Source of the DNA: Acaryochloris marina S15
GTDB lineage: Bacteria; Cyanobacteriota; Cyanobacteriia; Thermosynechococcales; Thermosynechococcaceae
Direction of reading: 5' to 3'
Assembly: GCF_018336915.1 (NCBI RefSeq)
Contig: NZ_CP064923.1
Span: 90,001-122,000 of the forward strand
DNA: 32,000 bases
A program made the translations under genes and the position numbers. The stretch's first letter is position 1; each line of letters begins with the position of its first letter. The notes under the pieces were generated by a model. It did not search any database. It worked only from the letters and a program-made list of their open reading frames with translations, and was not told the DNA's origin. This document shows positions 1,330 through 26,347 of this stretch, piece by piece.

Positions 1330-1343
1330 AATGAAGAGTTAGC

Positions 1344-9297: not shown

Positions 9298-10254
9298 TTA
9301 GGAATGATCCCAATCTGGCTTAAACAGCTTACGACTATTGAGATAACGATCAATAGACATGGCTGCCACACATCCATCGCCAGCTGCCACAACCGCTTGC
9401 TTAAAAGGGGTATTGCGGATATCTCCAATCGCCCATACACCATCCGTACTGGTTGCCATCAGTTCATCAACCTTTACCCCGCCGTCTTCATTGAACTCAA
9501 CCTGATCGCCGACAAAATCAGTGACGGGTTTGGACCCATTCTGATAGACAAACACCCCATCAACCTCTAAAGACAGCGGATCTTCTTGATCTCTGACTTT
9601 GACTTGAACCCCTGTGACCCCCATATCGCTCCCCTGAATGGACAGCAGTCTGGATCGGCTCCAATGTTTCACATTGGGTAAACTCAGCAAATCCTGAGCA
9701 TGTGCATCCTCAGCCGGAGGAGTCTTCACGGTCAGCCAGTGAACCATAGATGAAAATTTAGTGAGCACTTGGGCTTCTTCTATGGCTTCTCGGTTCAGTC
9801 CTACCACTGCAACAGGGCGATCTTGATAAAAAGCAGCATCACAGGTGGCGCAGTAACTCACCCCCCGACCTAGAAAGTCAGCTTCTCCGTCAAAAGATGC
9901 CTTACGTCCCATTGCTCCTGTGGCTAGGACAATTGACCGCCCCACAAATGTCCCTTCTGGGGTGTAAACCTTTTTCTGGGCACCAGTAATATCCAGACCA
10001 AAAACTTGTGCTTGTTGATAGTGAGTGCCGAATTCAATCGCTTGCTCTCTCATTACAGCCAGCAGTTCTTCACCACTGACATCACCAGCAACGCCAGGGT
10101 AGTTAGCAATTTTATGGGTAATTGCCAGAGCGCCAACCGCAGGGTTTTTGTCTAAAATAACAGTCTTGAAATTCGCTCGTGATGTATAAAGAGCACAGGT
10201 ACAGCCTGCAGGGCCACCACCAATAATTACAACATCAAACTCGTAGGTATCCAA
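9298..10254 (-). CDS. Thioredoxin-reductase-like flavoprotein lacking the NADPH-binding motifs (FFTR/DDOR-like)
   Basis: 318 aa with a TTG start 5 nt after the upstream stop. It has an FAD motif (VVIIGGGPAGCTCALY) and a redox CATC in GVSYCATCDAAFY. Where E. coli TrxB has GGGNTAVEEA and HRRDGFR, this protein has GLNREAIEEA and TVKTPPA. The C-terminal tail is RKLFKPDWDHS. Confidence 0.85.
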   Translation of the reverse strand: MDTYEFDVVIIGGGPAGCTCALYTSRANFKTVILDKNPAVGALAITHKIANYPGVAGDVSGEELLAVMREQAIEFGTHYQQAQVFGLDITGAQKKVYTPEGTFVGRSIVLATGAMGRKASFDGEADFLGRGVSYCATCDAAFYQDRPVAVVGLNREAIEEAQVLTKFSSMVHWLTVKTPPAEDAHAQDLLSLPNVKHWSRSRLLSIQGSDMGVTGVQVKVRDQEDPLSLEVDGVFVYQNGSKPVTDFVGDQVEFNEDGGVKVDELMATSTDGVWAIGDIRNTPFKQAVVAAGDGCVAAMSIDRYLNSRKLFKPDWDHS

Positions 10255-10259
10255 GGTCT

Positions 10260-11072
10260 TTAGTCTCCAGGCAGTAGGACAGAATTGTTCATTCCCTTAC
10301 ATAACAGCGTCGTTATGAGCTGTTCCGTGTCGGAGGGTAGGAATGCAGAGGACATTGATGCGACCTGTTGCCAAAATTCTAAAATGATTTGGCTCGTCCG
10401 ACTGGGATGATCATAATGGAAAAAATGCCGTCCTTGGGGGCAGCTCCATAAACGATCGCCAGTTTTAAGCCAGGGTTGCCATTGTGCATGAGCGTGCGGG
10501 TCAACCACAGCATCATGTTCGCCATGACACACGAGTAATGAAGGCTCTACTCCTCCAGGTGCTAACTCATTGCGATGGGCCAAGGAGTGCGGAGCCAATT
10601 CAGTATCTAGGATGGTGGCTAAGAGTGATGCCAATGCCATCGTTCGGTCAGTACTCATAGCGCCGAATAGCATGGTCACCATTTGGAATAAAATTGCCTC
10701 TCGACTACAGGGTAAAAGCTCCCTCATCTTGTAGTAGTGGGCATGCCAACCTACAGATGGATTCGCCCCAACGGATAGTAAAGTTAACGATTTGACAGCT
10801 TGGGGATTGTAGCGAGCATACAGCAACCCCAATGTACCGCTGAGCCCGTGCCCTAACAGATGAATGGGCTGTGATTGATGTTGGATATCCTGGTGGAGTA
10901 ATGCTAAGGCAGTTTGTATAGAGCAAGGTTCATCCGCCGTTTGATGGTAGCTCCAAAATTTCACATGGGCATATTGCTTGAGCTGTTGGCATAAACTCCA
11001 GTCAAATTTTTTGAGGCGGGGGTTAACACATAACCAGAGTGCATCAAAAGTACTCACAAGCTCGGGGTCCAT
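10260..11072 (-). CDS. Alpha/beta-fold hydrolase family protein
   Basis: 270 aa. It has a nucleophile-elbow-like HLLGHGLSGTLGLLYA, a later acid/His region (CHGEHDAVVDP; GRHFFHYDHP), and is apparently co-transcribed with 9298..10254. Confidence 0.7.
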   Translation of the reverse strand: MDPELVSTFDALWLCVNPRLKKFDWSLCQQLKQYAHVKFWSYHQTADEPCSIQTALALLHQDIQHQSQPIHLLGHGLSGTLGLLYARYNPQAVKSLTLLSVGANPSVGWHAHYYKMRELLPCSREAILFQMVTMLFGAMSTDRTMALASLLATILDTELAPHSLAHRNELAPGGVEPSLLVCHGEHDAVVDPHAHAQWQPWLKTGDRLWSCPQGRHFFHYDHPSRTSQIILEFWQQVASMSSAFLPSDTEQLITTLLCKGMNNSVLLPGD

Positions 11073-11204
11073 AGACTTAAATCAACAAAAGCATTCTGAT
11101 GTCAGTAATAATGCCTGTCACACCTGCACCTATCTGAGATCTAGAGTATTGTCAGCGTTTATAAAAAAGGTAGTCTAGAGTTTAGCTTTTACGCTGATGA
11201 ACAA

Positions 11205-11230
11205 AGATTATTGATTAATATTCTCAACTA
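11205..11230. promoter_or_regulatory. Iron-box-like motif upstream of the hydrolase/TrxR-like operon
   Basis: The sequence is agattattgattaatattctcaacta. It contains ATTCTCAA and TTGATTAAT, the same elements seen at 29271-29297. Confidence 0.35.
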
Positions 11231-11743
11231 CAGTACAACATTTCGGCTGTGAAGGATATTTTGCACCAAAGTTTGGATGGACGGATGAATGCAGGATCTA
11301 GATCGTCTAAGCAATGAAAGTCACCATAGGCAATATTCCAGCATTCAGTCATGCCCAGCTGGCTTTGAGTGATATTCCATAAGTAAGCTGACCTTGCCCT
11401 TGTAGAGTAGGCTCCATGAGAACCACACCTACTACCTCCAACATAGGTGGTTAATTATCTTTGCCAGCAGCTAAAATGTCCCTCAACCAAAATGGGGTCT
11501 AGCAGCTTTGCGGATGAAAAATGACCGCCTTCCAGATTCACATAAGTTTGAAGTGACTAACGTCTGCTGATCTCCAGTCTTTCTAAGGTATTCATGTTAG
11601 CTGGGTGGTTTCCTTCAGGCCGAAGACAGAATTATGGAGAGCACTCACAGGCAGGAGAAGCAGAATTGAGTAGTTTGCTTGGAAGATTGCTCGACCTGGT
11701 TTTAGGGGTCAAGTTTTAGTCCGGCTGTAAAAAAATGAAAGCA

Positions 11744-12003
11744 GTTGTGAATGATTCATTGATCCGTAGACTGATTGAATGTTTTCAGGGCTTGATATAC
11801 CGTCTGATACCAATCTGTGCCTGAAGGTGTAACTCTCAAACTTGTGAAACCCAATACTGAGTTGGCTTAGAAAATAATCAAAATTACACTCTTAGGTGCT
11901 AATTGTTATGAGGACTCACACTGGCGAACAATCCTACAGCCAACATCAATCCATCTCAGTGGCACAGGGGACTAGAGCAACTGATGCCCAGCAGGAATAA
12001 CCG
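11744..12003 (-). pseudogene. Decayed FecCD permease 5' fragment (ghost paralog of 7371..8396)
   Basis: The minus strand reads ..VIPAGHQLL*SPVPL.. and ..VYQALKTFNQSTDQ*II.. These compare with [16 protein letters not shown] and [17 protein letters not shown] in the intact copy. The start codon is lost, and the fragment has stops and a ~65 nt indel. Only faint traces continue leftward. Confidence 0.65.
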
Positions 12004-12007
12004 ATAT

Positions 12008-12042
12008 TGAAATTATTGATAACGATTATTAGTAATAATGCA
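12008..12042. promoter_or_regulatory. Fur-box-like site in duplicated promoter copy B
   Basis: The sequence is tgaaattattgataacgattattagtaataatgca. Its core TGATAAC-G-ATTATTA matches the 7-1-7 TGATAAT-n-ATTATCA at 12 of 14 positions. Confidence 0.45.
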
Positions 12043-12582
12043 TAGATGTGCTTATGATTTCTATCTACGAATTAAGAGAAAAGCTTGTTGCAAAAGAATT
12101 TTAGGCTTGCCTATGGCTTCATATCTGTATATTACAAAATCAATAACTTATGTCTAATTTCAACGTAATATAAGAAAAATTGTAATTAATTTAGCAAGAG
12201 AATGAGTTTTAATACCTCCTGCACGCCCTGGCCATACTTATACAGGTGGCGATGCTAAGACCAACATTAGGAGGATTCAAATTTGACTGCTCTAGCTCTC
12301 GACAGTCACAGATTGTCTTTGAATTGTTTCAACAATGTTTTAGCGATGAATCGACTACTTTGAAAGATATAGCTCAGTTTTATTAGAGTAGACTGGCTTA
12401 TGATAGAGATTAGTGGCTATATATAAGCACTTTTGGGGCAAAATCTTGCTTCAAGAGACTATATCTACAAAATATGCTGAATATTGCCGATACTCTTCCC
12501 TCATTGTTGAAGACTCAATGTAGGAGAATACCAAATTAGTAATCCACTCGCTAACGATTCGAAATAATGTAAAACAACAACG

Positions 12583-13278
12583 ATGTCAAATATCTATCGT
12601 GGAATTGTTATTCCTGGGGAGACGGGCCTTGCTGGATGTTCTAGCCAATGGTGCTTTGAATCTTTGCAAACTTATTTCCGATGGGGACAACGAGAATTTG
12701 GACTTCGGGTTTACTATCCCCATTGGCTTCAGGGGCGACAATACCAAATTGATGTTGTGGACTGGGTGAATCAGTTCTATCCCGTCTATACCTACCAGTA
12801 TTGTTGCCAAGATGGCAGTGCCCTCACTGACCCTTCTTCATGGACGGGTGATTATCCTGATGTCGATGAAGATGAAAAACTTAAACTCGTCCAGCTCAGG
12901 ACCTTTACTAAAACCAAACACGGCTTTTACCTGGGAACTGTGAAGGATGCCTATGAACTGCTACAACAAGGCATTACCCACTGTGAACCCTATGACTACG
13001 ACACTAAGCTATTCCCCCAATCCCGACAGATGAGCAAAGTCTGTTCTATTGGTTCTGATGGAGAACGATGGGCCGCGTTCACTGATCATGGCTTTCAATG
13101 GGTTGATATTGGGCACGTCGTCCAAGCCGGCGATCCTGGTACTGACGTTCAAGAATTTCCTACCGTTCTTCAGAAATATACGGAGAAAAACTCTCCCTCT
13201 CTCCCCGTTGGCTTTAAGGTGAAAAATGTTTTAGATTCCAAGCGGGTCGCTATCATCATTGCTCGAAGTATGAGTTAA
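12583..13278 (+). CDS. Hypothetical protein (231 aa, aromatic- and Cys-rich, no signal peptide)
   Basis: A clean ATG ORF with no competing frame. I recognise no family. It lies about 340 bp downstream of duplicated promoter copy B, on the side opposite the permease ghost. Confidence 0.6.
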   Translation: MSNIYRGIVIPGETGLAGCSSQWCFESLQTYFRWGQREFGLRVYYPHWLQGRQYQIDVVDWVNQFYPVYTYQYCCQDGSALTDPSSWTGDYPDVDEDEKLKLVQLRTFTKTKHGFYLGTVKDAYELLQQGITHCEPYDYDTKLFPQSRQMSKVCSIGSDGERWAAFTDHGFQWVDIGHVVQAGDPGTDVQEFPTVLQKYTEKNSPSLPVGFKVKNVLDSKRVAIIIARSMS

Positions 13279-13310: not shown

Positions 13311-14264
13311 CTATTGAGCAATGTCTATAGAAAATATTTGAGCAATGTCGTCTAAGATCTGGTTTGCCGCCAGAACATTACGGCCTGCTGTCCACACTTC
13401 GCTGTTGACTTCATAGATGCTCTTGTTCCTCACAGCCTTCAACTTTGACCATAGTGGATCAGTCACAAAGCTTTGATAGTCAAAGCTGCCTGATATCTGA
13501 GGATTATGGATTAAAAAGAGTAGATCGCCATTCATACTAGCCAAATCTTCCCGAGCAATTTGTACGACATACCCATTCGCGTTCTTTTGTTTTGAGGGCC
13601 GACCAAACCCTATATCTTTCATTACAGATCCTGAAAAGCTGTTTGCAGTATATAGGCCAATCCGACCTTGACCTGTGGCAACGATTGAAACAAGGGTTTG
13701 GTCAATGTCCTCTACCTGCTGTCGGAGGGCTTTGACCCGCTGTTGATAACCTGCCAGGACCTGCTGCCCTTCCGCCTCTTTATTGAGGGCTTGAGCAAAC
13801 AAACGGAAATTGTCTTGTCATTCTCCGTCTCGGCCGCTCCCTTGGGTTAAAACCGTTGGGGCGATCCGATCTAAGTGTTGGTATATTTTTCCAGAGCTGA
13901 TCTTACTTCCTAATATCAAATCAGGTTTCAGGCTGAGAATCGTTTCTAAGTTTGGTTGAGTGCCTTCTCCCACGGATGTAATGCCTTGGGTTTGGTCTCC
14001 CAAATAGGTGGGGAATTGATTGTAAATCACTGAACCAATCGGTTTTATCCCGAGCGCTAAAGCGGCATCTAAGGCCGCCGTATCCACTGTAATCACGCGC
14101 TGAGCTTGTTGGGGAACTTGGCTGATTCCCATGGCATGTTCTACAGATAGAGAGGTGCTTGTAGCCAGGGGAGAACGCTGTTGGGGAAGATTGGGTAACG
14201 GATCGGAGGCACAACTCATTAACAGACTGAGGAGCAAGCAGGCAGTAACACTGATCCATAGCAT
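13311..14264 (-). pseudogene. Periplasmic ferric-siderophore binding protein interrupted by one in-frame TGA
   Basis: Track ORFs 13818..14363 and 13311..13802 are in the same frame, separated only by TGA (13818-13820) and 5 sense codons. The likely start is the ATG at 14264 (MLWISVTACLLLSLLMSCAS, lipobox). The stop aligns with the Trp in paralog 1432..2379 (GLPTWREHFNFVANVL vs GRDGE*QDNFRLFAQAL). Confidence 0.8.
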
Positions 14265-14400
14265 CCGTCGGGGTTTGGGTAAGCGTAACCGACGAATTTC
14301 TATGGCAAGACTTGCCGCTAGCACTAGCCATATCAGCAACATGATCATGAACTCCCAATACACTGAAGATCTAAAAAACGGGGTGCGGGCTCACCTTTAC

Positions 14401-17109
14401 CTAAAACTCAAAACTATAGCGAATGCTATAAGTCCGACCTTGGCCGGGAAAGCGTCTTAATTCCTGAATACCCAGACGTTCTTGGGAACTCACAGGCACA
14501 TATTGGGTATCAAATAAGTTTTGGATGGCGAGCTGTAGCTTTCCAGGTCCTAAGTTCACAGTACTGAAGACATCGAAAACCGTGTAACCCTCTACTTGAA
14601 ACTGATCGATCGTGTCATTAAAGGCTCGATCTCGTCCCCCCACAAATAAAGCTTGAATCCGATTGCGCCAGCCGGGTAGGGTCTCATTCTCAACATAGAC
14701 CGTTGCGTGAATGGGCTGGACGTCCAGGGAGCTAAGGGCTGTAAAGATACCATCATCGTCTGGATCTGATTCGCCCTCATTCCAGGTAAAAACGGTCCCT
14801 AGGGTCCATGTGTCGCTGGGCTGCCAATCTGCGGTGAATTCAATGCCATAGTTCCGTTGAGGTGCCCGCACAATAGAAGTCAGCCCTACATTGTCAACCA
14901 CTAGCGAAGAACCTAGAGAAGAGGTACTCAAAAAGCCAGCCAGACTAAGCTTAACCGTATCAAAGTTGGCTTTAACACCCAGCTCATAGCTGTTAACTTT
15001 TTGAGGTTCTAGATTGAGGCTGTTAGCCACACTATTGCCAAATCGGGCGAGCCCTAGCGTTACCCCAACACCAGGAATCGAAAATCCTTGGGCAAAGTTT
15101 GCATAGATGTTCACTTCCTCCGTTGCTTTAAATACCGCCCCCGCATTGAAGACCACATCATCGGTATTGATCACTCCTCCTTGGATTTGGGCAGGTGGAG
15201 CAACTCCAAAATTTGCAAAGGGGCTGGCAGCATAGTCATCGACGGACAAGCGAATATTTTCGTATCGAATTCCGCCAGTGAGGGATAGCTGATCCACAAC
15301 ATCCCAGGTTAGTTGGCTAAACGCACCGATACTGCGTACGGTATAAAACGGGGATTGGGTTGCCGTACCGATCACTCGGGCCTGGCGATTGAGGTCAAAA
15401 TCTACTGGATCTAGAGAATTGAAAAACTGCTCATTCTCTTCATAGGACAGATCAGCACCCCAGAGGATTTTGAAGCGATCTGTAATGGGTGTATCGAGCT
15501 GAAACCGTCCCCCTACTTCTAGGGAATCTAAATTGGTTTGCGTAATGGCAGGCAAGAACGGGGGTGTACCAACGGGAAAGAGATTGCGAATATCACCTGG
15601 GATTTGGGTCAAATCAGTTTTGCGAAGGTAAGCCTGGGTCCGTAATTCAGCTCCAAATAAATTTTGATGGCGGTAGGTTAAATTGAGATTTTGAATGGTT
15701 TGGGACGGGCTATCATCAAACGTGATCGGCCCTACTCTCAATGCCTCAGCATCTTGCTCTCCTGGGGTTGCCAGAACAATTGGATTGGAAATAAAATCGC
15801 TGGCAAAATCGTTCTGAAAGAAGTTGTAGGAGACTTGCAGGCGTTGATCATCTGTAATATCAATACCTGCTTTTGTAAACACGTTAATGGTGTTGTTGTT
15901 CGAGGTTAAACCGTCAGGTGGAATACGATCGCCTTCACCATCAAAGATAGCGCCATCTAAATCAAATGCCGCCCCGACTAGAAAATCGAATTTTCCTTGC
16001 TTACCTGATAGGCTAGTATCCACTTTGAAGCCAAACCCATTCTCCGATAAGTGTTCAAAATCAGGGCGAAGTGTGAGTCCTAATTGTCCCTGAATGCCTT
16101 CCTCTACTGGGGCGCGAGTCAGAATATTGATGACCCCACCCGTTGCACCATCGCCAAAAACAGCGCTGGGTCCTCTAACCACTTCAATCCGCTCAATGAC
16201 GGATGGATCAATCGCGGATAACTCTGTGTCAAAGGACGCATTCCCTGTTTGGGGGATGCTATCAATCAGGATTTGAGCAGGGCGACCTCTTAAATCCTGT
16301 ACCCGAGTCCGACCATCCGCTGTTGGCGGTCCAAAGCCAGGTACAAACTTGCCCAGGGTTGAAGTCAGGTCATTGCTCAACAGGGCTTCTTGCTCTAACT
16401 GTTCACGGCTAATGATGGTGACGGCACGGGGAACATCTGCCAGGGCCTCCTCCGTTCGAGTAGCTGTGACGACAATTTCTAAATCATCCTCTTCGCTGGA
16501 GGGATTCTCCGCAGGTGAAGTTTCGGTAGAGTTTGAAGTCTCGGCTGTTTCCTGGGTGTTGATACTCAATATGAGAGTCTGAGAGTCTGGTTGAATTTGG
16601 TGACTTAATTCTGTCTGATCACCAATAACGGTCACCCGTACACGATTGATGTCTATGGGCATAACAGACACTGAGCGTATGCCTGCAATAGGGTTGTTTT
16701 CTTCGAAGATTTGCCCAGTGGATAAATTGAGCTGGGCCGCTTCAATATCTGCGATAAATGTTGACCCGCTCCCAGAAGGCGTCACCTGCAAGGCATCACC
16801 GTTGGCAACATTTAACACAATATTGACCCCACCTTCAGTTGGGACGAGGGTAATCTGCGTAATCACGGAAATGGGTACGGACTCAGTTTGGGCGATATGG
16901 TGATCAGACTTATTTGGGGACGGAGCTATTTGTTCAACCTTATAGCTCCTGCTTGTCCATTGACCCGAGTTTAATTGGGATGAGTCAAGGGTAGTTGATG
17001 GAGACTGAGATGCATGGGTAGTAGTAGCCAGAGTCCCTAGAGATGTCCCTATAACACCCACAAAAATATAAATGATATTCAAAGATGGTTTAATACTCAT
17101 TCCCCACAC
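14401..17109 (-). CDS. TonB-dependent siderophore receptor with N-terminal AMIN-like domain (apparently intact)
   Basis: 902 aa. The start is GTG at 17109 or ATG at 17100. It has a signal peptide, an AMIN-like segment (ITLVPTEGGVNIVLNV...VRVTVIGD), a plug (LEIVVTATRTEEALADVPRAVTIISRE; IEVVRGPSAVFGDGATGGVINILT) and a barrel ending YSIRYSFEF. Confidence 0.92.
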   Translation of the reverse strand: MWGMSIKPSLNIIYIFVGVIGTSLGTLATTTHASQSPSTTLDSSQLNSGQWTSRSYKVEQIAPSPNKSDHHIAQTESVPISVITQITLVPTEGGVNIVLNVANGDALQVTPSGSGSTFIADIEAAQLNLSTGQIFEENNPIAGIRSVSVMPIDINRVRVTVIGDQTELSHQIQPDSQTLILSINTQETAETSNSTETSPAENPSSEEDDLEIVVTATRTEEALADVPRAVTIISREQLEQEALLSNDLTSTLGKFVPGFGPPTADGRTRVQDLRGRPAQILIDSIPQTGNASFDTELSAIDPSVIERIEVVRGPSAVFGDGATGGVINILTRAPVEEGIQGQLGLTLRPDFEHLSENGFGFKVDTSLSGKQGKFDFLVGAAFDLDGAIFDGEGDRIPPDGLTSNNNTINVFTKAGIDITDDQRLQVSYNFFQNDFASDFISNPIVLATPGEQDAEALRVGPITFDDSPSQTIQNLNLTYRHQNLFGAELRTQAYLRKTDLTQIPGDIRNLFPVGTPPFLPAITQTNLDSLEVGGRFQLDTPITDRFKILWGADLSYEENEQFFNSLDPVDFDLNRQARVIGTATQSPFYTVRSIGAFSQLTWDVVDQLSLTGGIRYENIRLSVDDYAASPFANFGVAPPAQIQGGVINTDDVVFNAGAVFKATEEVNIYANFAQGFSIPGVGVTLGLARFGNSVANSLNLEPQKVNSYELGVKANFDTVKLSLAGFLSTSSLGSSLVVDNVGLTSIVRAPQRNYGIEFTADWQPSDTWTLGTVFTWNEGESDPDDDGIFTALSSLDVQPIHATVYVENETLPGWRNRIQALFVGGRDRAFNDTIDQFQVEGYTVFDVFSTVNLGPGKLQLAIQNLFDTQYVPVSSQERLGIQELRRFPGQGRTYSIRYSFEF

Positions 17110-17356
17110 GGCTGCAGACGACAGATGACAAAGGTGATCCAGGCCCCACGTTCAAGGTTGGGTTCTACTGGGCAGTTATTAAGAATACTTCTCAATATAA
17201 ATTACTAGAGTGGGATGCCACTTTTGGCAGGATGCTGTCTTGCAAACGGACTTTTTCTGTCTTATAGCAGGACTATTTTGTAGAAAGCAGAAAATAAGAG
17301 CGTTGCAGCAGGCGTTGGTATCGGCCCCCTCCAGCTGAGGTGGCCAGCAATTTTCC

Positions 17357-18358
17357 CTAAGGGCGATAGGTGTTGGGGTTCACCTTAAACTGCTTCGTAA
17401 AGGCGGCTACAAAGGCGGTTCGACTGGCATAACCCACAGCATGGGCCGTTTCCGTCACAGTCCATTGACCGGAGGTGAGCAGTTGGCGGGCTTTATCCAT
17501 GCGGTACTGGTACAAGTAGTTAAAGACAGAGGTGCCAAAGACGTAGCGAAACCCCTGCTTGAGTTTGCGATCGTTGATACCCACTTGACGGGCTAATTCG
17601 AGCAGAGATGGAGGATGCAAGTAGTTCTGAATTAAGATGTGACGGGCTTTGTGGATCTGTTCAACATCGGTGGGATGAAGAGAGCTAGGAAGTGCAGACG
17701 TGCTGAGGGCTTCCAATTGCAACCCCAGAAGCTCAAGGGCTTTGCCTGCAAGATAAACATTTCTGGCCATTCCTTGAAAGGGACAAGTCACCAGTTGTTC
17801 AAGCACTAAGTGCATTCTAGGTGTCGTTGGATTTTTGCAGTACAGGGGATAGGGGGTGTGAATGGGCTGGCTTAAATTCGATGATTGGGCAGCGAGGTGT
17901 TGGAGATTGAGTTGTGGAAAATGGTCCAACTCAAAATAGAGTTTTAAGCAATAGATCCGCTGATTTGCATGATATTTCTCAATTTCAGCAGTTTGAGGTA
18001 AATGGTATAAATAGTTGTTGCCAGCCTGTTCTGTTTGAGGAGTGGGTAAAGCTTCATTGGTTACAACTGCCTGCCCTGATAGATAAAAACTAGCGGTCAG
18101 AGGCATCTGGGGAGAATGGACCTGAATGCGATTGACATGGTTATAGTTCAGTTCAACATCAGCAATATCTAAGATTAGGCCTGGCTGTAAGAGGTGTCGT
18201 CGTATATATCCACTGCCAAACTGGACCGGAAGTGCAATACATTGTTCATCCTGAGTGATATGGGGCAGGGTATCGGAGTCACGATTGCTCTGTAGAAAAG
18301 CAATAATATCTGCGTTGGTGAGGGTTTTAGGCATACCCATGGTGGCGACATCCATCAC
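17357..18358 (-). CDS. AraC-family transcriptional regulator (paralog of 6289..7281)
   Basis: 333 aa. The C-terminal AraC HTH domain reads LLELARQVGINDRKLKQGFRYVFGTSVFNYLYQYRMDKARQLL...TAHAVGYASRTAFVAAFTKQFKVNP. Confidence 0.9.
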   Translation of the reverse strand: MMDVATMGMPKTLTNADIIAFLQSNRDSDTLPHITQDEQCIALPVQFGSGYIRRHLLQPGLILDIADVELNYNHVNRIQVHSPQMPLTASFYLSGQAVVTNEALPTPQTEQAGNNYLYHLPQTAEIEKYHANQRIYCLKLYFELDHFPQLNLQHLAAQSSNLSQPIHTPYPLYCKNPTTPRMHLVLEQLVTCPFQGMARNVYLAGKALELLGLQLEALSTSALPSSLHPTDVEQIHKARHILIQNYLHPPSLLELARQVGINDRKLKQGFRYVFGTSVFNYLYQYRMDKARQLLTSGQWTVTETAHAVGYASRTAFVAAFTKQFKVNPNTYRP

Positions 18359-19534: not shown

Positions 19535-19954
19535 AGAAGTATTGTCTAGCAGAGAAAAACGATATCTATTCTCAATAATCTCAGTTTAAGGCGATATATG
19601 ATTTCTATATTGAGAATCTTTTTAGAAAAATTAGACTGATTTTTTAACGAAAGATATTGAACTGAGGCAAAGTAGAGTTTGATATTTCTATTCTCGATCA
19701 ATTTTTTCACCCATCACTGATCCATACATTTGCCAGTTACTGCGGGATGTAGTTATCTATCAATGGATTGTCTGAGATAGCCTAATTTAAAGACTTTTAG
19801 GCGTTTGAAGTCTGCTTTTGATCTTTGATGAACTGTACGACGAATATGTTTAGTCCAGTATTTATTTGCATGAAAATATAAATAAATATTGAGATGTTGC
19901 AGTTTTTCTTCGACTTTCACAACTCATATTTCCACAAAACGCAAGTCCTGATAA

Positions 19955-20007: not shown

Positions 20008-21054
20008 ATGCAAACCTATGGACAGCCCACAGTTAACTATCCTTGGTATGCGGGAAATGCTCGTTATACAGGGTTTAGTGCCCAGTTCCTAGCTGCGCAT
20101 ATCGGCCAAATTGCGTCGATGTGTTTCTTCGCTGGGACTTTTACTATCTATGAACTGTCTCGCTACGATCCCGATTTGCCGTTATATAGCCAAAACTTTG
20201 TTTGTCTACCACAATTAGCTCGCGAAGGGTTTGGGGTAGGGGCTGGCGGGGTAATTGTAGACACTTACATCTACTTCGCCATTGGCATGATTCACCTGTT
20301 TGCAGCGGCCGTGTTTGCGTCAGGGGCTTTGTACCATATTGTGACCGGACCTAAGAACTTTGCGGATAGCGAGTTTCCTGGGGTCAAACGGTTTCATTTC
20401 GAGTGGGATGATTTTGAAACCCAGGGCAGAATTCTGGGGCATCATCTCATTTTCTTGGGGTTAGGAACCTTTTTGTTTACGGGTTGGGGAGCCACTCATG
20501 GCTTCTATGATCCCAGTATTGGAGAGGTCAGAGCAGTCGTACCTGAATTTAATATCGTCAGACTGTTCAAATATGGATGGGCTGTTCCGGGTTTCAATCC
20601 GTTCTTTGTCGATAACCTAGAAGATGTGCAGATGGGCCACCTCTTTGTTGGCTTTCTCTATACTCTGGGCGGTGTTTTCCACATTTTGGTTAAACCCTGG
20701 CCCTATACGGATCGGCTATATCGCAAAAATGCTGATGCTATCTTGGCCTATGCCTTGGGTGGACTCGCCTTTTTAGGCTTTATTGCCTGTTACTTTACTG
20801 CTGTTAACGAAATCACATTTCCGCCGGAGTTCTTTGGTCCTGTCCTAGAGCTAAGGTTTGTATTTGCCCCGTATTTTGCTGACATCATTGATACAGCAAA
20901 CGGTATGCATACCTCCCGTTTCTGGATTTGCAATTTCCATTTCTATTGGGCTTTCTTTTGCCTTCAAGGCCATCTCTTTCACGCCTTGCGTGGGATGGGC
21001 TTCGATTTCCGAGATGTCCCCAAATATTTTGAGCAATTCGCTTCCGAAGTTTAG
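20008..21054 (+). CDS. IsiA/Pcb-family (CP43-like) chlorophyll-binding antenna protein
   Basis: 348 aa. The N-terminus MQTYGQPTVNYPWYAGNARYTG is characteristic of IsiA/Pcb. It has six hydrophobic helices, lacks the long CP43 loop E, and has the C-terminal motif CLQGHLFHALRGMGFDF. Confidence 0.9.
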   Translation: MQTYGQPTVNYPWYAGNARYTGFSAQFLAAHIGQIASMCFFAGTFTIYELSRYDPDLPLYSQNFVCLPQLAREGFGVGAGGVIVDTYIYFAIGMIHLFAAAVFASGALYHIVTGPKNFADSEFPGVKRFHFEWDDFETQGRILGHHLIFLGLGTFLFTGWGATHGFYDPSIGEVRAVVPEFNIVRLFKYGWAVPGFNPFFVDNLEDVQMGHLFVGFLYTLGGVFHILVKPWPYTDRLYRKNADAILAYALGGLAFLGFIACYFTAVNEITFPPEFFGPVLELRFVFAPYFADIIDTANGMHTSRFWICNFHFYWAFFCLQGHLFHALRGMGFDFRDVPKYFEQFASEV

Positions 21055-21327: not shown

Positions 21328-22389
21328 ATGACAGCATCTTTAACAAGACGCGACAAAATGGACAGGTCCCAGCTCACTGCGGGGACGGCAAGCCTGAGCG
21401 GTTATGAAGCGGAATGGTGGGCAGGCAATGTCCGCAACACTGATTTTTCTGGTACGCTTCTGGGTGCTCATTTATGCCATGCAGCTCTAATGAGCTGTGT
21501 TCCCGGCGCTTTTATTATTCAAGAGGCTGCTCGCTTTCAACCCGGCATTCCATTGTCGGAGCAAGGTATGGTCTTTATGCCTCACCTGGCGGGTTTAGGT
21601 ATAGCCGTGGGCTCAGGTGGAGAGGTTCTGAGTACGTATCCCTATTTTGTGATTGGCGTTCTGCACTTCTTTGTGGCGGCATTCTGTTGTGCGGGTGGGC
21701 TATTTCACACCATTGCTGGAGAGGCGAATCTAGGAGATTACCCTGAAGGTAGCTGGGCCGCTCAATTCGATTATGATTGGGACGATTTTGAGTCCACCTC
21801 CTCTATTTTGGGCCATCACCTGCTTTGCTTAGGGGTTGCTTGTCTATTGTTTGCAGGCAATGCTGCTTATGGGAATGGCTTATATGATCCCTTGGTCGGT
21901 GAAGTTCGTCAGATTACTCCCAACCTGAATCCGATTACCTTGCTCGGTTACTTATTCGGATTTGCGAATGGAGAATGGACGATTTTGGGAATGGCGGCGG
22001 TTAACAATATGGAAGACCTAGTCGGGGGACATTTCCTGGTTGCCATTGTTGATATTGCAGGGGCTGCCTTTCATATCATTAATAAGAAACCTACGGCCTT
22101 TTTCAAAAATCGGCTAATCTTTTCCTTCCCTAATGGAGGTTTGGTGCGCGCTGGTATTTGCAATAGCGAAGCTATTCTGTCTTATAGTGTGGCTTCAGTG
22201 GGTTTTATTGCCATCAGTTCTGCCATTTTTACCCAGTATTGCGATATCGCTTTTGCTCCTGAGTTTTACGGCGTTGATCGGTCTGGGGCCGCTTCCATCC
22301 AGCTCATTCTGGGAGTGAACTGGATGGTCGTCGGGGGGCTATGGCATAGCCTGCGTGGCGAAAGGCTTCATGCCCTCAAGAATAAATAG
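21328..22389 (+). CDS. Divergent IsiA/Pcb-family chlorophyll-binding protein
   Basis: I place the start at ATG 21328 (gagga 8-12 nt upstream) rather than the track start 21244. Supporting motifs are YEAEWWAGNVRNTDFSGTLLGAHLCHAAL, FDYDWDDFESTSSILGHHL (compare FHFEWDDFETQGRILGHHL in gene 1) and the helix VI variant VVGGLWHSLRGER. Confidence 0.8.
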   Translation: MTASLTRRDKMDRSQLTAGTASLSGYEAEWWAGNVRNTDFSGTLLGAHLCHAALMSCVPGAFIIQEAARFQPGIPLSEQGMVFMPHLAGLGIAVGSGGEVLSTYPYFVIGVLHFFVAAFCCAGGLFHTIAGEANLGDYPEGSWAAQFDYDWDDFESTSSILGHHLLCLGVACLLFAGNAAYGNGLYDPLVGEVRQITPNLNPITLLGYLFGFANGEWTILGMAAVNNMEDLVGGHFLVAIVDIAGAAFHIINKKPTAFFKNRLIFSFPNGGLVRAGICNSEAILSYSVASVGFIAISSAIFTQYCDIAFAPEFYGVDRSGAASIQLILGVNWMVVGGLWHSLRGERLHALKNK

Positions 22390-22393
22390 TTCT

Positions 22394-22590
22394 ATAGGCC
22401 AGCATTGAGATATAACGTTGTTCGAGTAAGGAATAACCATATCTGATGCTGGTCTATGCATTTTGTCAGTGACTCTTTTCTCTCGCTCGCGCAGCCTTGC
22501 TCACAATCTGTGCGAACGAGAGAAGACCTATAGATTTCCACTTTTATTTGTAGCAAGGAGTGCTGTGACTCAGTCAGTTCTTGCTACAAA
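22394..22590 (+). other. Three consecutive stem-loops downstream of pcb gene 2 (terminator, structured RNA or MITE-like remnant)
   Basis: Hairpin 1 pairs 22394-22413 with 22439-22457 (~18 bp, one mismatch and a bulge). Hairpin 2 pairs 22477-22494 with 22508-22525 (16 of 18). Hairpin 3 pairs 22547-22557 with 22580-22590 (perfect 11 bp), and its loop contains the palindrome tgactcagtca. Confidence 0.4.
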
Positions 22591-22631
22591 GTTTTCGTTG
22601 AACCGTTATTAATCATTTTTTGAATAGAATA

Positions 22632-23000
22632 ATGCAACTCAATACCCCTTATTTTAAGGACACGGCTGACTTGGCCGATGGTGTATTTAGTTCTCGTGCT
22701 TGGTTAGCCAATATTACTTACTATTTGGGCTTTTACTGCCTACAAGGGCACTTATTCCATAGCTTACGAGCGATGGGCGTAAAGTTTGAAGAGATCCCTG
22801 AGGCGTGCGCTCTCAACTTTGTCCAACAGCCGTCAATCATTACGGGAGCGGCTCCAACGATTGACGCTGCTTTAGACATAAAAGCAACTTTCCAAGAGGT
22901 GCCTGAAGAAGAAGATTATGCAGGGCTGTTTTTGCGCCACCACAGGATGCCATTGAACATTGCTCCAGCGATAAAGAGCATAAATGCCGGAATATTGTAG
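22632..23000 (+). pseudogene. Orphan C-terminal fragment of an IsiA/Pcb gene (helix VI only)
   Basis: MQLNTPYFKDTADLADGVFSSRAWLANITYYLGFYCLQGHLFHSLRAMGVKFEEI aligns with the last ~60 aa of gene 1 (FAPYFADIIDTANGMHTSRFWICNFHFYWAFFCLQGHLFHALRGMGFDF). An in-frame stop at 22599 leaves no upstream helices. The 3' tail overlaps the convergent gene 22916..23527. Confidence 0.5.
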
Positions 23001-23527
23001 AAAGGGATGTGCTGTGCTGCAGTCCCAAAGCCAAATGCCAAGGTAAAAATGAGCCAAATATACCAGAGCCCCAGGGTATACAAAATGCTCAGTCTTTTAG
23101 GAACATGGGCTTGATATAGATAATCAAAAATTTCGGGTTTCACCAATTCTGTGACTGAGAACAGCACCATAATGATCCAGAGTGGAGCGGTCACTAGCCA
23201 TGTTGTCCAAGAGCAAGTTTCCCCTAGTTGGTAGTACAGAACAATTTGGTAGAGATGGATGAGGTGAGATAGGGTCAGGGCTAGCCATAGATAGCTGCGA
23301 TTGCTTTTGAGCCATTTCCCTAGTTCATCCGTTGTGGCTGTGAGGGGCTGGGTTACAAACACTAGCAAAAATGGAATAGCGGTTGTTAATGAACTCAACC
23401 TTAGAGCAGTGAGAATGTTTTCGCTGGTTATCTTGGGATAAAGGGCCAAACCTGATGCAAGCAGCATAAATACTGTCGAGATTAAAACACCAGTCCAGCC
23501 TAAGGATGACTGTTTGTGGGTTCTCAT
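22916..23527 (-). CDS. Hypothetical integral membrane protein (about 6 predicted TM helices)
   Basis: 203 aa, strongly hydrophobic, with an ATG start. It shows only weak resemblance to YedZ/MsrQ-type heme-b membrane proteins (LALTLSHLIHLYQIVLYY), so no function is assigned. Confidence 0.6.
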   Translation of the reverse strand: MRTHKQSSLGWTGVLISTVFMLLASGLALYPKITSENILTALRLSSLTTAIPFLLVFVTQPLTATTDELGKWLKSNRSYLWLALTLSHLIHLYQIVLYYQLGETCSWTTWLVTAPLWIIMVLFSVTELVKPEIFDYLYQAHVPKRLSILYTLGLWYIWLIFTLAFGFGTAAQHIPFYNIPAFMLFIAGAMFNGILWWRKNSPA

Positions 23528-23799
23528 AGCCTGGAATTTAGATAAAATCGACCGATAGTTTTGTTTAAGTGATGATATTGGCTTTTGAAAGCTCTATTGT
23601 ATCGTTTTTCTCTTTTTATATCTAAAAATCTGCTGATTAAGTTCTAGTCAACGGGTTGAGAGTATGGGAGATCTGTGGTGGGTTGCGAGGGTCTCCGACT
23701 GGCCTTTGGCCATCGCACAATTGATACCCTCCAGTTGCTATCGTTCTGCAGCAGTCGCAAATTTAGCTATAAATCATCGAATTCGCGGTTGAAAAGAAT

Positions 23800-23833
23800 A
23801 CCCGCAGAATCTTACTGAGAAGATTCTGCGGGT
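23800..23833 (-). terminator. Rho-independent terminator of petE
   Basis: A perfect 14 bp stem (ACCCGCAGAATCTT / AAGATTCTGCGGGT) with a 6 nt loop lies 70 bp downstream of the petE stop. On the minus strand it is followed by attcttttc. Confidence 0.7.
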
Positions 23834-23905
23834 ACAAGCTTTTGAATAGGGAAAGAGCGTTGAAACCGTTGAAATGATTCAATAATCACCTGCACGGATG
23901 TGAAT

Positions 23906-24304
23906 TTAGCCTTGAACTGTAATAGTGCCAGTCATTCCTGCGCCCCTGTGGGGTTCACAGTAGAAAGAATAGCTGCCTGGAGTGGCATCGGCAGGGAAAG
24001 TTACATCAAATCCACCGGACATAGCAAAGGCCTGATGAGACAAAGGACCGACATCACCAGCAGAATTACCCGGATCAAACACCACATTATGGGGAGGTAC
24101 ACCTGCCACTTCGTAATGCACCGTATCTCCTGGAGCAATCGTCACTTCAGTCGGTTCAAACACTAGCATGCCTGTAGAAGAACCCATTTGAATCGTGGAT
24201 GTTGCAGCAAGAGCAGTTGAGCCTGGCCAAAACCCACCGATTACCAGCAGTACTGCCATTAAGGTGGTCGTTAGACCCAGACGTAAGGGGTTAAGGTAGC
24301 GCAT
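23906..24304 (-). CDS. petE: Plastocyanin
   Basis: The start is taken at ATG 24304 (ggaga upstream), giving the signal peptide MRYLNPLRLGLTTTLMAVLLVIGGFWPGSTALA. The copper ligands are present in PPHNVVFD and YSFYCEPHRGAGM. Confidence 0.92.
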   Translation of the reverse strand: MRYLNPLRLGLTTTLMAVLLVIGGFWPGSTALAATSTIQMGSSTGMLVFEPTEVTIAPGDTVHYEVAGVPPHNVVFDPGNSAGDVGPLSHQAFAMSGGFDVTFPADATPGSYSFYCEPHRGAGMTGTITVQG

Positions 24305-24375
24305 TGGTTTTCTCCAAAGCTGAAATAAACAAGTACGACAAGTTGTCATACTTCACAATACCATTGCTGCAGATA

Positions 24376-24394
24376 ATTGAGAATTAGTCTTAAT
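24376..24394. promoter_or_regulatory. Palindromic operator copy ATTGAGAATTAGTCTTAAT upstream of petE
   Basis: It matches 19955-19973 at 18 of 19 positions and lies 72-90 bp upstream of the petE start. Confidence 0.5.
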
Positions 24395-24592
24395 TACTTA
24401 AATGGCTGGAGTAGAAAATAGTGATCGAATGCCTGATATAGGCCTGAATTTTTTAACCTGGGTGCCTCCAATGCGGGCGAGGAGCAGGCCACTGGTTGGC
24501 AAAGTCAAACTGGGTCTGGCATAGAAGGGCTGATGAACATTCCATTGTCTTGTGGTGAAGGGGCTGTCAGCAGGCATAATTTGAGCCAACGA

Positions 24593-25039
24593 TCAGGGCG
24601 ACTCATGAGCGTTATCTGACTGTCCAAATAAGGCGTAAACATCTTGAAAAAACTGTTCTAGCTTTTTTCTAGCCAGTAATGTCGGAGGCGATTTACCATC
24701 AAAGTCCCAATCATTCGTTGTAGAACAGCATCGCCAATAGGGTTCGGTATGGGTATAGCCCATTGATTCAATACCAATGATGCGAGCGTCGGCAGATTTA
24801 GGACTCTCGGAAAAGCGGATTTGGGTCAGGACACAGTGACTATGGCAAGTGGGATGCCAACCTGGAAAATGAAAGCACAGATCAATCGAGTGAGGATCGA
24901 TCAAGTATCGGAGGGCAGGGTCATGGATCCAGGGACTCAAATCTGGGTGGGCATCCAGAAATTGCTCTTTGAATAGGGAGACAATGCGAGAGATTTTGCT
25001 GAGCATCTCATAGGTCTCTGTATGGTCAGTAGCATTCAC
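24593..25039 (-). CDS. Hypothetical protein (148 aa) with a His/Cys cluster
   Basis: GTG start with ggaga 9 nt upstream. It contains the motif CFHFPGWHPTCHSHC, and I recognise no family. An operator copy lies 27 bp upstream. Confidence 0.55.
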   Translation of the reverse strand: MNATDHTETYEMLSKISRIVSLFKEQFLDAHPDLSPWIHDPALRYLIDPHSIDLCFHFPGWHPTCHSHCVLTQIRFSESPKSADARIIGIESMGYTHTEPYWRCCSTTNDWDFDGKSPPTLLARKKLEQFFQDVYALFGQSDNAHESP

Positions 25040-25065
25040 AGCTCATTTCTCCAGCCAACTAATTT

Positions 25066-25083
25066 ATGAGATTAATTCTCAAG
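25066..25083. promoter_or_regulatory. Third operator copy (minus-strand reading CTTGAGAATTAATCTCAT)
   Basis: About 15 of 17 core positions are identical to the other two copies. It lies in the divergent region between 24593..25039 (-) and fda (+). Confidence 0.45.
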
Positions 25084-25306
25084 AAATAAAGATCTTTGCC
25101 GACAATTTTCACTTCAATTTCATACTGTTAGATTTATATTTTTCGTGTTTTTACAGATATTTCAGCAATATATCAAGGCTTTAGACTACTTCCTGATGGA
25201 CTCAATGCCTGAAAAGAACCCTTGACAATTCAAATTATTATTGACATTATATATCAATAAGAAAGAGATTTTTTATTTCATCTCAGCCCAATCTAGGAGG
25301 TTCGAT

Positions 25307-26347
25307 ATGAGTACCTATACCCAAGAATTAAGGGCCACTGCAAAAGCTTTGGTGGCAAGAGGTAAGGGCATCTTGGCAATTGATGAGAGTAATGGCACTT
25401 GTAATAAGCGATTTGCTCAGCTAAGCATTCCTACGACCGAAGAAAATCGGAGAGCTTATCGGGAGTTAATCCTAACAACACCTCGACTTTCTACTTACAT
25501 CAGTGGTCCCATTTTGTTTGATGAGACCATTCGACAGACGACTAGAAACGGTAAATCATTTGTACAAGTGATTACTGAAGCTGGCATGATTCCTGGGATT
25601 AAAGTAGATACCGGGGCCAAAGATTTAGCAGCTCGCCCTGGTGAAAAAGTAACGGAAGGATTAGATGGCCTGCGAGATCGCATTGCTGAGTACTACGGTA
25701 TGGGGGCTCGTTTTGCTAAATGGCGGGGTGTGATCACTATTGATAATGGCATTCCCAGTCAAGCCTGCATTGATGTGAATGCGCAGGCTTTGGCCCGATA
25801 TGCTGCCCTCTGTCAAGAAGGGGGTTTAGTTCCCATCGTCGAGCCAGAAGTCTTAATTGACGGTGACCATACCTTAGAACAGTGTTATCAGGTCACAGAT
25901 CGCACCCTCCATACCGTGTTTGGTCAGCTCTATGATCAAGGGATTGCTTTTGATCAAATGATTCTGAAGCCCAGCATGGTGGTTGCGGGCAAAGATTGTC
26001 CCCAACAGCCCAGTGTGGACGAGGTTGCAGAGGCAACGATTAATTGTCTTCGTAAAAATGTGCCTGCTTCGGTTGCAGGAGTGGCCTTTTTGTCGGGTGG
26101 CCAAAGTGCTGAACGATCTGCTGCCCATCTCAATGTTATGAATGCCCGGTATGCAGAGATTTGTCCATGGCCGGTCACGTTTTCCTATGCGAGAGCGATC
26201 CAGCAGCCGGCATTGGAACATTGGCGAGGTGAGAGTCAGCGCGTAACCGAAGCTCAACAGCGGCTGTTGCATCGTGCCAAATGTAATAGTGCTGCCCGAT
26301 TGGGTGAATATAGCTCTGAAGTTGAGCGAGAGCTGGCTCTCGTCTAA
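25307..26347 (+). CDS. fda: Class I (Schiff-base, metal-independent) fructose-bisphosphate aldolase
   Basis: ATG at 25307 with AGGAGG at 25295-25300. Class I signatures are present: GILAIDESNGT, VPIVEPEVLIDG, and the Schiff-base Lys in MILKPSMVV. Length is 346 aa. Confidence 0.93.
   Translation: MSTYTQELRATAKALVARGKGILAIDESNGTCNKRFAQLSIPTTEENRRAYRELILTTPRLSTYISGPILFDETIRQTTRNGKSFVQVITEAGMIPGIKVDTGAKDLAARPGEKVTEGLDGLRDRIAEYYGMGARFAKWRGVITIDNGIPSQACIDVNAQALARYAALCQEGGLVPIVEPEVLIDGDHTLEQCYQVTDRTLHTVFGQLYDQGIAFDQMILKPSMVVAGKDCPQQPSVDEVAEATINCLRKNVPASVAGVAFLSGGQSAERSAAHLNVMNARYAEICPWPVTFSYARAIQQPALEHWRGESQRVTEAQQRLLHRAKCNSAARLGEYSSEVERELALV

Follow-up and report, generated by a model that had tools for sequence, protein, structure and literature searches.

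Candidate stand-ins for iron-costly proteins lie among siderophore uptake genes and Fur-like boxes in a probable iron-stress neighbourhood of Acaryochloris marina S15

Introduction

Iron limits marine photosynthesis, and genes for proteins that substitute for iron-costly ones serve as field markers of iron stress. Several such genes lie among siderophore uptake genes in a 32,000-nucleotide stretch of the chromosome of the chlorophyll-d cyanobacterium Acaryochloris marina S15 (NZ_CP064923.1, positions 90,001 to 122,000; hereafter the window), which raises the question of whether they form one iron-stress response or are neighbours by chance. The block under study spans positions 9298-26347 (all coordinates are positions in the whole window) and encodes a flavin thioredoxin reductase (FFTR), Pcb antennae, plastocyanin (petE) and a fructose-bisphosphate aldolase of class I (FBA; fbaI). 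A first-pass annotation had proposed that these genes form a regulon-like island. The proposal gains support from a shared Fur-type operator, from the conservation of the boxes and from recurrence of the gene set in other cyanobacteria, and all of its predictions that could be tested computationally held. We consider it likely that this is a chromosomal iron-stress neighbourhood in which each transcription unit has its own Fur-type operator, and not one operon. The units with such an operator are FecCD_b, hydrolase-FFTR, receptor b, Suc_Fer, pcbA(-pcbC), petE, orf148 and fbaI.

Every component, every substitution and Fur-controlled isiA clusters are already known. In the literature searched we found no account of hydrolase-FFTR, class I FBA and orf148-like genes being grouped with IsiA/Pcb and flavodoxin or plastocyanin, nor of the shared Fur-type operator and the recurrence of the module in three lineages.

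Identities of the candidate iron-sparing proteins

Gene calls come from the listing of open reading frames (ORFs) together with Pfam and NCBIfam scans, and orthologs in A. marina MBIC11017, the closest complete relative, were assigned from gene positions and locus tags tabulated in the PMC5295598 supplement. The four identities proposed earlier (a thioredoxin reductase homolog, IsiA/Pcb antennae, plastocyanin and class I aldolase) all hold, as follows:

9298-10254, reverse strand: FFTR/DTR-type flavin thioredoxin reductase (PDB 5J60/6XTF; TTG start; ortholog AM1_3352)
10260-11072, reverse strand: alpha/beta hydrolase, first gene of the hydrolase-FFTR operon (Pfam Abhydrolase_1)
20008-21054, forward strand: PcbA-type antenna (Pfam PF00421; ortholog AM1_3362, PcbA4)
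21328-22389, forward strand: PcbC-type antenna (Pfam PF00421; ortholog AM1_3364, PcbC1)
22620-23000, forward strand: remnant of a third pcb gene (ortholog AM1_3366, PcbA5), about 860 bp including the start deleted
23798-23835, reverse strand: strong terminator-like hairpin after petE
23906-24304, reverse strand: plastocyanin PetE (TIGR02656 equivalog; ortholog AM1_3369)
24593-25039, reverse strand: orf148, conserved hypothetical, divergent from fbaI
25307-26347, forward strand: class I (Schiff-base) FBA, fbaI (NF033379, PF00274; ortholog AM1_3372)
26393-26422, forward strand: terminator-like hairpin after fbaI

The hairpins after petE and fbaI indicate separate transcription units. The siderophore clusters flank and interleave with the block, as the first-pass annotation described, with uptake genes at 265-8396 and 13311-18358; a receptor with Plug and beta-barrel domains is accompanied by a binding protein and FecCD permeases (Pfam), as expected of TonB-dependent siderophore uptake.

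The thioredoxin reductase aligns end to end with the Gloeobacter violaceus enzyme (DTR/FFTR, PDB 5J60/6XTF, E 4.6e-148) and scores 285.7 bits against the NCBIfam equivalog for NADPH-dependent thioredoxin reductase, below its cut-off of 343.45. The redox CxxC is present as CATC, aligned to the CATC of GvDTR, and in an alignment to the NADPH-dependent enzyme 5UTH the NADPH motifs GGGDSA and HRRDEFRA are replaced by GLNREA and TVKTP-PA. The C-terminal ...KPDWDHS aligns with ...KPDWAH of GvDTR (W315), the Trp tail for ferredoxin binding, and the protein is 94% identical to AM1_3352 and 100% identical to one assigned to Acaryochloris sp. 'Moss Beach'. These features predict a ferredoxin-dependent, NADPH-independent thioredoxin reductase. 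Gloeobacter lacks the [4Fe-4S] ferredoxin:thioredoxin reductase (FTR), so that FFTR is its sole reductase, whereas in MBIC11017 FFTR coexists with FTR (AM1_4031) and also with a second putative thioredoxin reductase (AM1_3255). A further difference is that FFTR in the window is predicted to be co-transcribed with a hydrolase behind a Fur-like box. FFTR in Acaryochloris has been noted before (PMC9025218), and Buey et al. proposed that the presence of FFTR versus FTR reflects iron supply, leaving open substitution, duplication or crosstalk (PMC8154056). In Synechococcus sp. PCC 7336 (locus L007, 8001-9868) the very next gene after FFTR encodes the FTR catalytic subunit (PF02943). That pair is followed by a DUF309 gene, and in Trichodesmium DUF309 likewise adjoins the FTR beta chain.

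Only 5 nt separate the hydrolase stop codon from the TTG start of FFTR. Hydrolase homologues 54-60% identical adjoin FFTR, flavodoxin or TonB-uptake genes in three loci outside Acaryochloris (L008, L013 and L014, described below). The protein has the alpha/beta-hydrolase fold expected of an IsiC, and its homologues follow flavodoxin (L014) or lie between isiA-like genes and flavodoxin (L013). We call it IsiC-like by context, the kinship to Synechocystis sll0249 being drawn from context and size only.

Antennae of the Pcb/IsiA family are six-helix CP43-like proteins without the large lumenal loop, and we assign both proteins of the window to it. The first scores 367 bits against the TIGR03041 antenna model (cut-off 335); the second reaches 253 bits, below that cut-off, with an E value of 1e-151 to the PcbC2 chain of PDB 7YMI. 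The closest chains in this A. marina photosystem II (PSII)-Pcb structure are PcbA-type for the first and PcbC2 for the second. The 'high light inducible' label that the pcb genes bear in MBIC11017 is an artefact of annotation, as a search for a true HLIP gene turned up no HLIP motif. The third pcb proved to be a deletion remnant: in 22390-23000 only the last ~90 codons remain of a gene that is full-length in MBIC11017. This fits the copy-number variation and pcb pseudogenes reported among A. marina strains. The names PcbA4, PcbC1 and PcbA5 of the three MBIC11017 orthologs were assigned by accession order (PMC10889353), and the PSII-Pcb megacomplex of normally grown cells contains four other Pcbs, A2, A6, A3 and C2, and none of these three (PMC10889353). 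PcbC is induced by iron deficiency in Acaryochloris according to Chen et al. 2005, as that work is cited in PMC3156569.

PetE passes the TIGR02656 plastocyanin cut-off (97.9 against 87.85 bits), and its type-1 Cu ligands, His, Cys, His and Met, are in place (PHN...YCEPHRGAGM). FbaI scores 510 bits against the NF033379 class I model, with a cut-off of 250, and matches PF00274 with an E value of 8e-132. Its translation contains ILKPSMV, which we take to be the context of the Schiff-base lysine. The idea that all these products are low-metal stand-ins needs correction for the antennae, which are compensatory proteins and not metal-free substitutes.

The gene divergent from fbaI, orf148, is one of a small family of 98 cluster representatives for which Pfam has no model. 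Its AlphaFold2 model is poor (predicted local distance difference test, pLDDT, 58.7), a Foldseek search against the PDB gave no match below E 0.29, and cluster look-ups of its relatives returned only 'hypothetical protein' entries from cyanobacterial metagenome-assembled genomes (MAGs).

Fur-like boxes in the promoters

On reading the intergenic regions we saw a recurring 19-bp palindrome, ATTGAGAAT-N-ATTCTCAAT, which was then scanned as ATTGAGAATNATTCTCAAT with mismatch limits; 78% of the window DNA is coding. With at most 3 mismatches there are 4 matches, against 0.03-0.05 expected. With at most 5 mismatches there are 12 sites, every one of them intergenic, against 1.0 expected and a maximum of 5 in 300 intergenic-only shuffles. 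The half-site equals the published Anabaena FurA consensus AAATAAATTCTCAATAAAT (PMC4005646). The FurA core AATTCTCAATAA, with at most 2 mismatches, has 13 matches (5.0 expected in the whole window, 2.0 in intergenic-only shuffles), and every one falls in a promoter, namely that of FecCD_b, receptor b, Suc_Fer, pcbA, petE, orf148/fbaI or PiuC. The iron-box-like motifs reported earlier upstream of most genes are therefore non-random; pcbC, which starts 273 bp after pcbA, has no box of its own. The sites, with the further genes that they precede, are:

7371-8396, reverse strand: FecCD permease b (FecCD_b; Pfam FecCD E 5e-93)
8407-8425: Fur-like box, FecCD_b, 3 mismatches, 11-29 bp upstream
11210-11228: Fur-like box, hydrolase-FFTR, 4 mismatches, 138-156 bp upstream, in a 34-bp invariant island
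14401-17109, reverse strand: TonB-dependent receptor b (AMIN, Plug and barrel; Pfam)
17178-17196: Fur-like box, receptor b, 2 mismatches, 69-87 bp upstream, kept in loci L001 and L003
18443-19534, reverse strand: Suc_Fer-like (thioredoxin-like ferredoxin) protein (Pfam PF06999 E 5e-30; ortholog AM1_3361)
19558-19576 and 19609-19627: Fur-like boxes, Suc_Fer, 24-93 bp upstream, conserved in MBIC11017
19955-19973: Fur-like box, pcbA, the best match, 1 mismatch, 35-53 bp upstream
24376-24394: Fur-like box, petE, 2 mismatches, 72-90 bp upstream of the ATG
25065-25083: Fur-like box, orf148, 4 mismatches, 26-44 bp upstream, conserved in MBIC11017
25222-25258, forward strand: fbaI promoter-like site TTGACA-17-CATTAT, overlapped by TTATTGA-N9-TCAATAA
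25240-25258: Fur-like box, fbaI, 5 mismatches, overlapping the -10 hexamer
28316-28993, reverse strand: PiuC-type Fe(II)/2-oxoglutarate hydroxylase (Pfam)
29124-29142 and others: weak Fur-like sites upstream of PiuC
12015 and 27099: two further weak Fur-like sites

Intergenic DNA is 81-84% identical to that of MBIC11017 overall, and the boxes lie in invariant islands: the 70 bases before pcbA, the petE box, the orf148 box together with the fbaI promoter, and 34 bases before the hydrolase. The pcbA box is also found in MAG L002. On the MBIC11017 plasmid pREB1 two TonB receptors, feoA and a ferritin-like gene have the palindrome upstream. Control loci with unrelated FFTR genes (L007 and L009-L012), about 87 kb in all, contain no palindrome at up to 4 mismatches, and in 25 kb of the phycobiliprotein plasmid pREB3 there is none at up to 3 and one at up to 4. 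This last is a weak 4-mismatch box 220 bp upstream of an IsiA-type gene, which, given its weakness and distance, does not make the gene a clean positive control. A motif from our own expectation-maximisation search of pREB1 iron promoters, AAAGGTTTCCGAAACCTTT, was absent from the window and was dropped.

The promoter regions thus carry the Fur-box operator that marks a Fur regulon, and we infer that Fur binds the palindrome as a repressor. The boxes of pcbA, orf148 and fbaI are located near the likely core promoters or overlap them, which fits repression. Another regulator, either a Fur paralogue of the Zur/PerR type or an IdiB-like Crp/Fnr protein, would instead make this a zinc, copper, oxidative-stress or activator-driven iron regulon. 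MBIC11017 encodes several Fur paralogues, class II FBA accepts either zinc or iron, and the petE box, at about -50, has a position more typical of activators. Crp/Fnr regulators also lie beside feoA on pREB1, and in Trichodesmium a Crp/Fnr gene beside an isiC-like gene and isiB is itself strongly induced at low iron. The motif, however, matches the FurA consensus and stands before typical targets of Fur (siderophore receptors, FecCD, feoA and ferritin-like genes), and its TTGA...TCAA spacing of 11 nt is unlike FNR/CRP-type boxes, whose consensus does not fit such a spacing. We therefore regard a regulator other than Fur as unlikely.

Recurrence of the module outside Acaryochloris

The strongest new evidence for a module is its recurrence in other genera. 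In Leptolyngbya sp. PCC 7376 (L008), hydrolase (54% identity) and FFTR (76%) are accompanied by a flavodoxin-like ORF, class I FBA (74%) and a divergent orf148-like gene (33% identity, E 5e-25). In Oscillatoria sp. CS-180 (L013), an orf157-like gene (47%), a phycobilisome-linker gene (cpcG2-like), an isiA-PsaL fusion and two more isiA-like genes are followed by hydrolase (58%)-FFTR (75%), flavodoxin, class I FBA (74%) and an orf148-like gene (35%), and the whole set from orf157-like to orf148-like lies within 12 kb. The orf148 homologues beside class I FBA in these two loci share 33-35% identity with that of the window (E 1e-21 to 1e-25), and TTATTGA-N9-TCAATAA or near variants overlap the fbaI promoter in Acaryochloris, PCC 7376 and CS-180. 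Parts of the set occur further afield: in Leptolyngbya SIO1E4 (L014) flavodoxin and then hydrolase adjoin an ExbBD/FecCD/receptor cluster, and in Almyronema the hydrolase stands alone with two boxes upstream. The shared iron-box motif and the recurrence of most of the set in two unrelated cyanobacteria make this look like a real iron-starvation module.

The flavodoxin-like ORF of PCC 7376 (L008, 8958-9806) has a TAG at an expected Trp (DIQDD*NE) and is absent from the gene calls; either a pseudogene or a sequencing error would explain it.

The CS-180 locus also connects the module to the isiA2-isiA3-isiA4-cpcG2 clusters of Leptolyngbya JSC-1 and Trichodesmium, in which tandem IsiA/CP43-like paralogues are induced 300-500-fold at low iron, since a cluster of the isiA-cpcG2 kind lies there directly beside the hydrolase-FFTR/flavodoxin/FBA-I/orf148 module. 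The Acaryochloris copies differ from those clusters in being PcbA/PcbC-type chlorophyll-d antennae, without PsaL fusion or cpcG2 and with one copy deleted.

Conservation within Acaryochloris

Four Acaryochloris loci came out of a scan that took one genome per species. In MBIC11017 (NC_009925, 3385093-3406178) all genes from FFTR to the methyltransferase that follows orf157 are present in the same order, with 83-94% amino-acid identity. Synteny of the block is accordingly complete in MBIC11017, and the arrangement differs in the MAGs L002 and L003.

The canonical counterparts that the stand-ins could replace, petJ, class II fba and ftrC, had been named as genes to look for elsewhere in the genome, and MBIC11017 has them all: petJ (AM1_2756 and AM1_3887), class II fba (AM1_1506) and ftrC (AM1_4031). 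Its flavodoxin gene isiB (AM1_6004) also lies elsewhere. Expression values from iron-replete MBIC11017 are 38, 117 and 2 for the pcb orthologs (AM1_3362, AM1_3364 and AM1_3366), 54 for class I FBA and 2957 for class II FBA (AM1_1506). Low pcb and class I FBA together with high class II FBA in iron-replete cells is the pattern expected of repressed stand-ins.

The transposase genes of the region and the plasmid-borne paralogues of its uptake genes in MBIC11017 would suit a horizontally acquired mobile genomic island with iron genes as cargo. The GC content, 0.39-0.49, is nonetheless like that of the rest of the window, and the block is chromosomal and syntenic in MBIC11017 and, by ortholog numbering, in CCMEE 5410 (PMC3156569); on composition and synteny we hold such an origin to be very improbable.

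Precedents for the iron response

Regulation of many of these families has been measured in other cyanobacteria. The isiC gene of Synechocystis specifies an alpha/beta hydrolase and is transcribed together with isiAB, with three Fur boxes in control (PMC8634477). The isiA(E)BCD operon resembles the window in its IsiA-family antenna, its hydrolase, its iron-free electron carrier and its Fur boxes. It differs in that the genes of the window are divided among six or more transcription units lying between siderophore clusters, flavodoxin lies elsewhere (AM1_6004 in MBIC11017), the hydrolase is in an operon with FFTR, and plastocyanin and class I FBA belong to the neighbourhood.

In Trichodesmium, comparison of low-iron with iron-supplemented cultures (PMC12090762 and its tables) showed that fbaAI (Tery_1687) rose 74-fold, Tery_1686, its 146-aa divergent neighbour, 23-fold, a 247-aa hydrolase gene beside isiB 33-fold and isiA2-4 more than 300-fold; plastocyanin rose as well, and cytochrome c6 and the FTR beta chain fell (PMC12090762). 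The substitutive expression of strain IMS101 concerns the same pairs (FbaAI/FbaAII, plastocyanin/cytochrome c6 and the flavodoxin/ferredoxin system) and includes a small divergent hypothetical gene beside fbaAI, to which we liken orf148 by context and size only. Most of the IMS101 genes are scattered and its FFTR-type trxB does not respond to iron, in contrast to the proposed arrangement here, and regulation was measured there, whereas for the window it is deduced from operators. Iron limitation in marine Synechococcus/Prochlorococcus raises isiA/pcbA, isiB, trxB/trxR and one class I FBA gene together (PMC11970481, PMC9723758).

Points that weigh against a shared iron response

Several observations count against reading the region as one Fur-controlled neighbourhood. 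The first group concerns plastocyanin, whose promoter holds a further element:

24337-24347: PetR-type copper operator GACA-N3-TGTC in the petE promoter, conserved in MBIC11017

This operator lies at the mapped petE transcription start site (TSS) region, over the core promoter, with the Fur-like box ~40 bp upstream of it. The box is centred ~50 bp upstream of the mapped TSS, where a repressor would not usually bind, and petE is strongly expressed (2663) in iron-replete MBIC11017, where the operator over the core promoter is conserved. Given the operator and this strong expression, we read petE as copper-gated, with an iron input that at most modulates. The GACA-N3-TGTC operator recalls the PetRP copper switch of Synechocystis; the window petE differs in having an extra Fur-like palindrome, which is nearly identical to the pcbA box.

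The second group concerns FFTR and the aldolase in other organisms. The FFTR-type trxB of Trichodesmium, Tery_1699, shows no iron response (log2 fold change 0.49, not significant), and in Pleurocapsa, Waterburya and two further assemblies checked FFTR stands alone, without hydrolase, iron genes or box. A Southern Ocean study found that a second class I FBA gene went up when iron was added, and Gallagher & Miller 2018, working on Acaryochloris and iron, reported only iron-assimilation genes.

The third concerns the motif and the gene order. Because the palindrome consensus was first taken from this window, only the FurA-core test is fully independent, and our de novo search of the pREB1 iron promoters did not recover the Fur-like box. 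The island comprises at least six transcription units whose arrangement varies among Acaryochloris MAGs. In L003 the Tad6-like ORF is followed directly by FecCD_b and FecCD_a, with no hydrolase-FFTR between them, and an MFS transporter and acetyltransferases occupy the pcb position, so that no pcb lies beside Suc_Fer; in L002 another receptor cluster lies between pcbA and Suc_Fer.

Such findings invite the explanation that the genes were juxtaposed by accident in a rearrangement-prone genome rich in insertion sequences (IS) and are regulated independently, petE by copper through PetR, pcb by light, fbaI by carbon metabolism and FFTR as a housekeeping gene, the AT-rich palindromes being generic promoter features. 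An IS630 element and IS remnants, a MITE-like repeat, a nonsense mutation and a deletion in the region agree with it, as do the arrangements in L002 and L003, the PetR-type operator and high iron-replete expression of petE, and the solitary FFTR of several other genomes. It is harder to reconcile with a motif that is at least about ten-fold enriched even against intergenic-only shuffles, absent at up to 4 mismatches from the ~87 kb of control loci and conserved as footprints, or with four to six of the same gene families being neighbours again in two distant lineages. We judge coincidence to be quite unlikely, and continue with the Fur-controlled neighbourhood.

Proposed mechanism

When iron is sufficient, Fe2+-Fur bound to the 19-bp palindromes would repress at least eight promoters. 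When iron is short, Fur would leave them, and siderophore uptake would rise along with four other functions. Extra PcbA/PcbC antenna would compensate for the loss of iron-rich photosystem I; the metal-free class I aldolase would replace the class II enzyme; the flavin-only, ferredoxin-dependent thioredoxin reductase would act beside or instead of the [4Fe-4S] FTR; and there would be more plastocyanin relative to cytochrome c6. For petE, control would be mainly by copper through the PetR-type operator, with iron as a second input, and the promoter suggests that copper and iron signals meet at one place. That the products functionally replace their iron-costly counterparts is what we infer for the group.

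We tentatively extend this model to organisms that keep both thioredoxin reductases. There, FFTR and the IsiC-like hydrolase may form an iron-regulated back-up for FTR, a further iron-sparing swap beside flavodoxin/ferredoxin, plastocyanin/cytochrome c6 and class I/II aldolase. The swaps may be bundled physically and in their regulation in one conserved module, with the orf148-like gene (always divergent from fbaI) and the orf157-like gene as new iron-stress proteins; we put this forward as possible, short of probable. A module of this kind is not surprising in principle. Its use is that it makes the FFTR/FTR question directly testable, as MBIC11017 has both enzymes and its FFTR lies behind a Fur-type box in an iron-uptake cluster. 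The recurring module also offers the IsiC-like hydrolase and two small unnamed families as candidate parts of the iron-stress response.

Other features of the window

The remaining genes are mostly those of siderophore uptake:

265-4693, reverse strand: siderophore-uptake cluster a (ORF translations; homologues in Acaryochloris loci)
265-1329, reverse strand: FecCD permease a (FecCD_a; translation)
1432-2379, reverse strand: periplasmic binding protein a (translation)
2429-4693, reverse strand: TonB-dependent receptor a (translation)
4842-5927, forward strand: IS630-family transposase, splitting the uptake cluster (translation; the same family is annotated IS630-like on pREB3)
6289-7281, reverse strand: AraC-family regulator a (AraC-like translation)
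12583-13278, forward strand: Tad6-like ORF, conserved, inside the siderophore cluster (weak Pfam match)
13311-14363, reverse strand: periplasmic binding protein b (in-frame TGA at 13818-13820)
17357-18358, reverse strand: AraC-family regulator b (Pfam HTH_18)
22916-23527, reverse strand: 203-aa membrane protein (92% identity in MBIC11017)
26492-26965, forward strand: orf157, conserved hypothetical (47% homologue in Oscillatoria CS-180; ortholog AM1_3373)
after orf157: LCM-type methyltransferase (gene order based on Pfam/NCBIfam)

Pfam gave no match, even at E values up to 5, for the 203-aa membrane protein, orf148 or orf157, and NCBIfam none for the 203-aa membrane protein or orf148.

FecCD_a is 91% identical to the gene directly after FecCD_b in L003. 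Between FecCD_b and FFTR, at 8700-9100, lies a fragment that, judged by eye, resembles the N-terminus of an IS transposase; this fragment and the IS630 element at 4842-5927 suggest that insertions have parted the FecCD genes that are adjacent in L003. The TGA in binding protein b corresponds to a Trp (GEW) in MBIC11017 and L003 and is likely a nonsense mutation, so that uptake system b may be decaying in this strain.

Proteins of the Suc_Fer family also lie between receptor and AraC genes on pREB1 (L006, 14653-15750) and with FecCD/binding-protein genes in MAG L004 (1609-2664); the one in the window could be a siderophore-associated redox protein. An exact search for this protein among public assemblies gave no match. 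The Tad6-like ORF (231 aa) is 86-90% conserved in the siderophore clusters of MBIC11017 and L003 and has a borderline match to the anti-Thoeris Tad6 family (28.8 bits, cut-off 27).

An element of ~110 bp at 11803-11915 has 93-94% identical copies on four plasmids of Acaryochloris sp. 'Moss Beach', some of them within or beside transposase genes, and looks like a miniature inverted-repeat transposable element (MITE). It was the sole match in a megablast of 18 kb against plasmids. At the far end of the window, at ~29500-32000 on the forward strand, an ORF of at least 826 aa runs past the window end; it has RTX-type GGxGxD calcium-binding repeats and long (GES)n tracts, which are encoded by 9-bp tandem arrays with strong GC skew.

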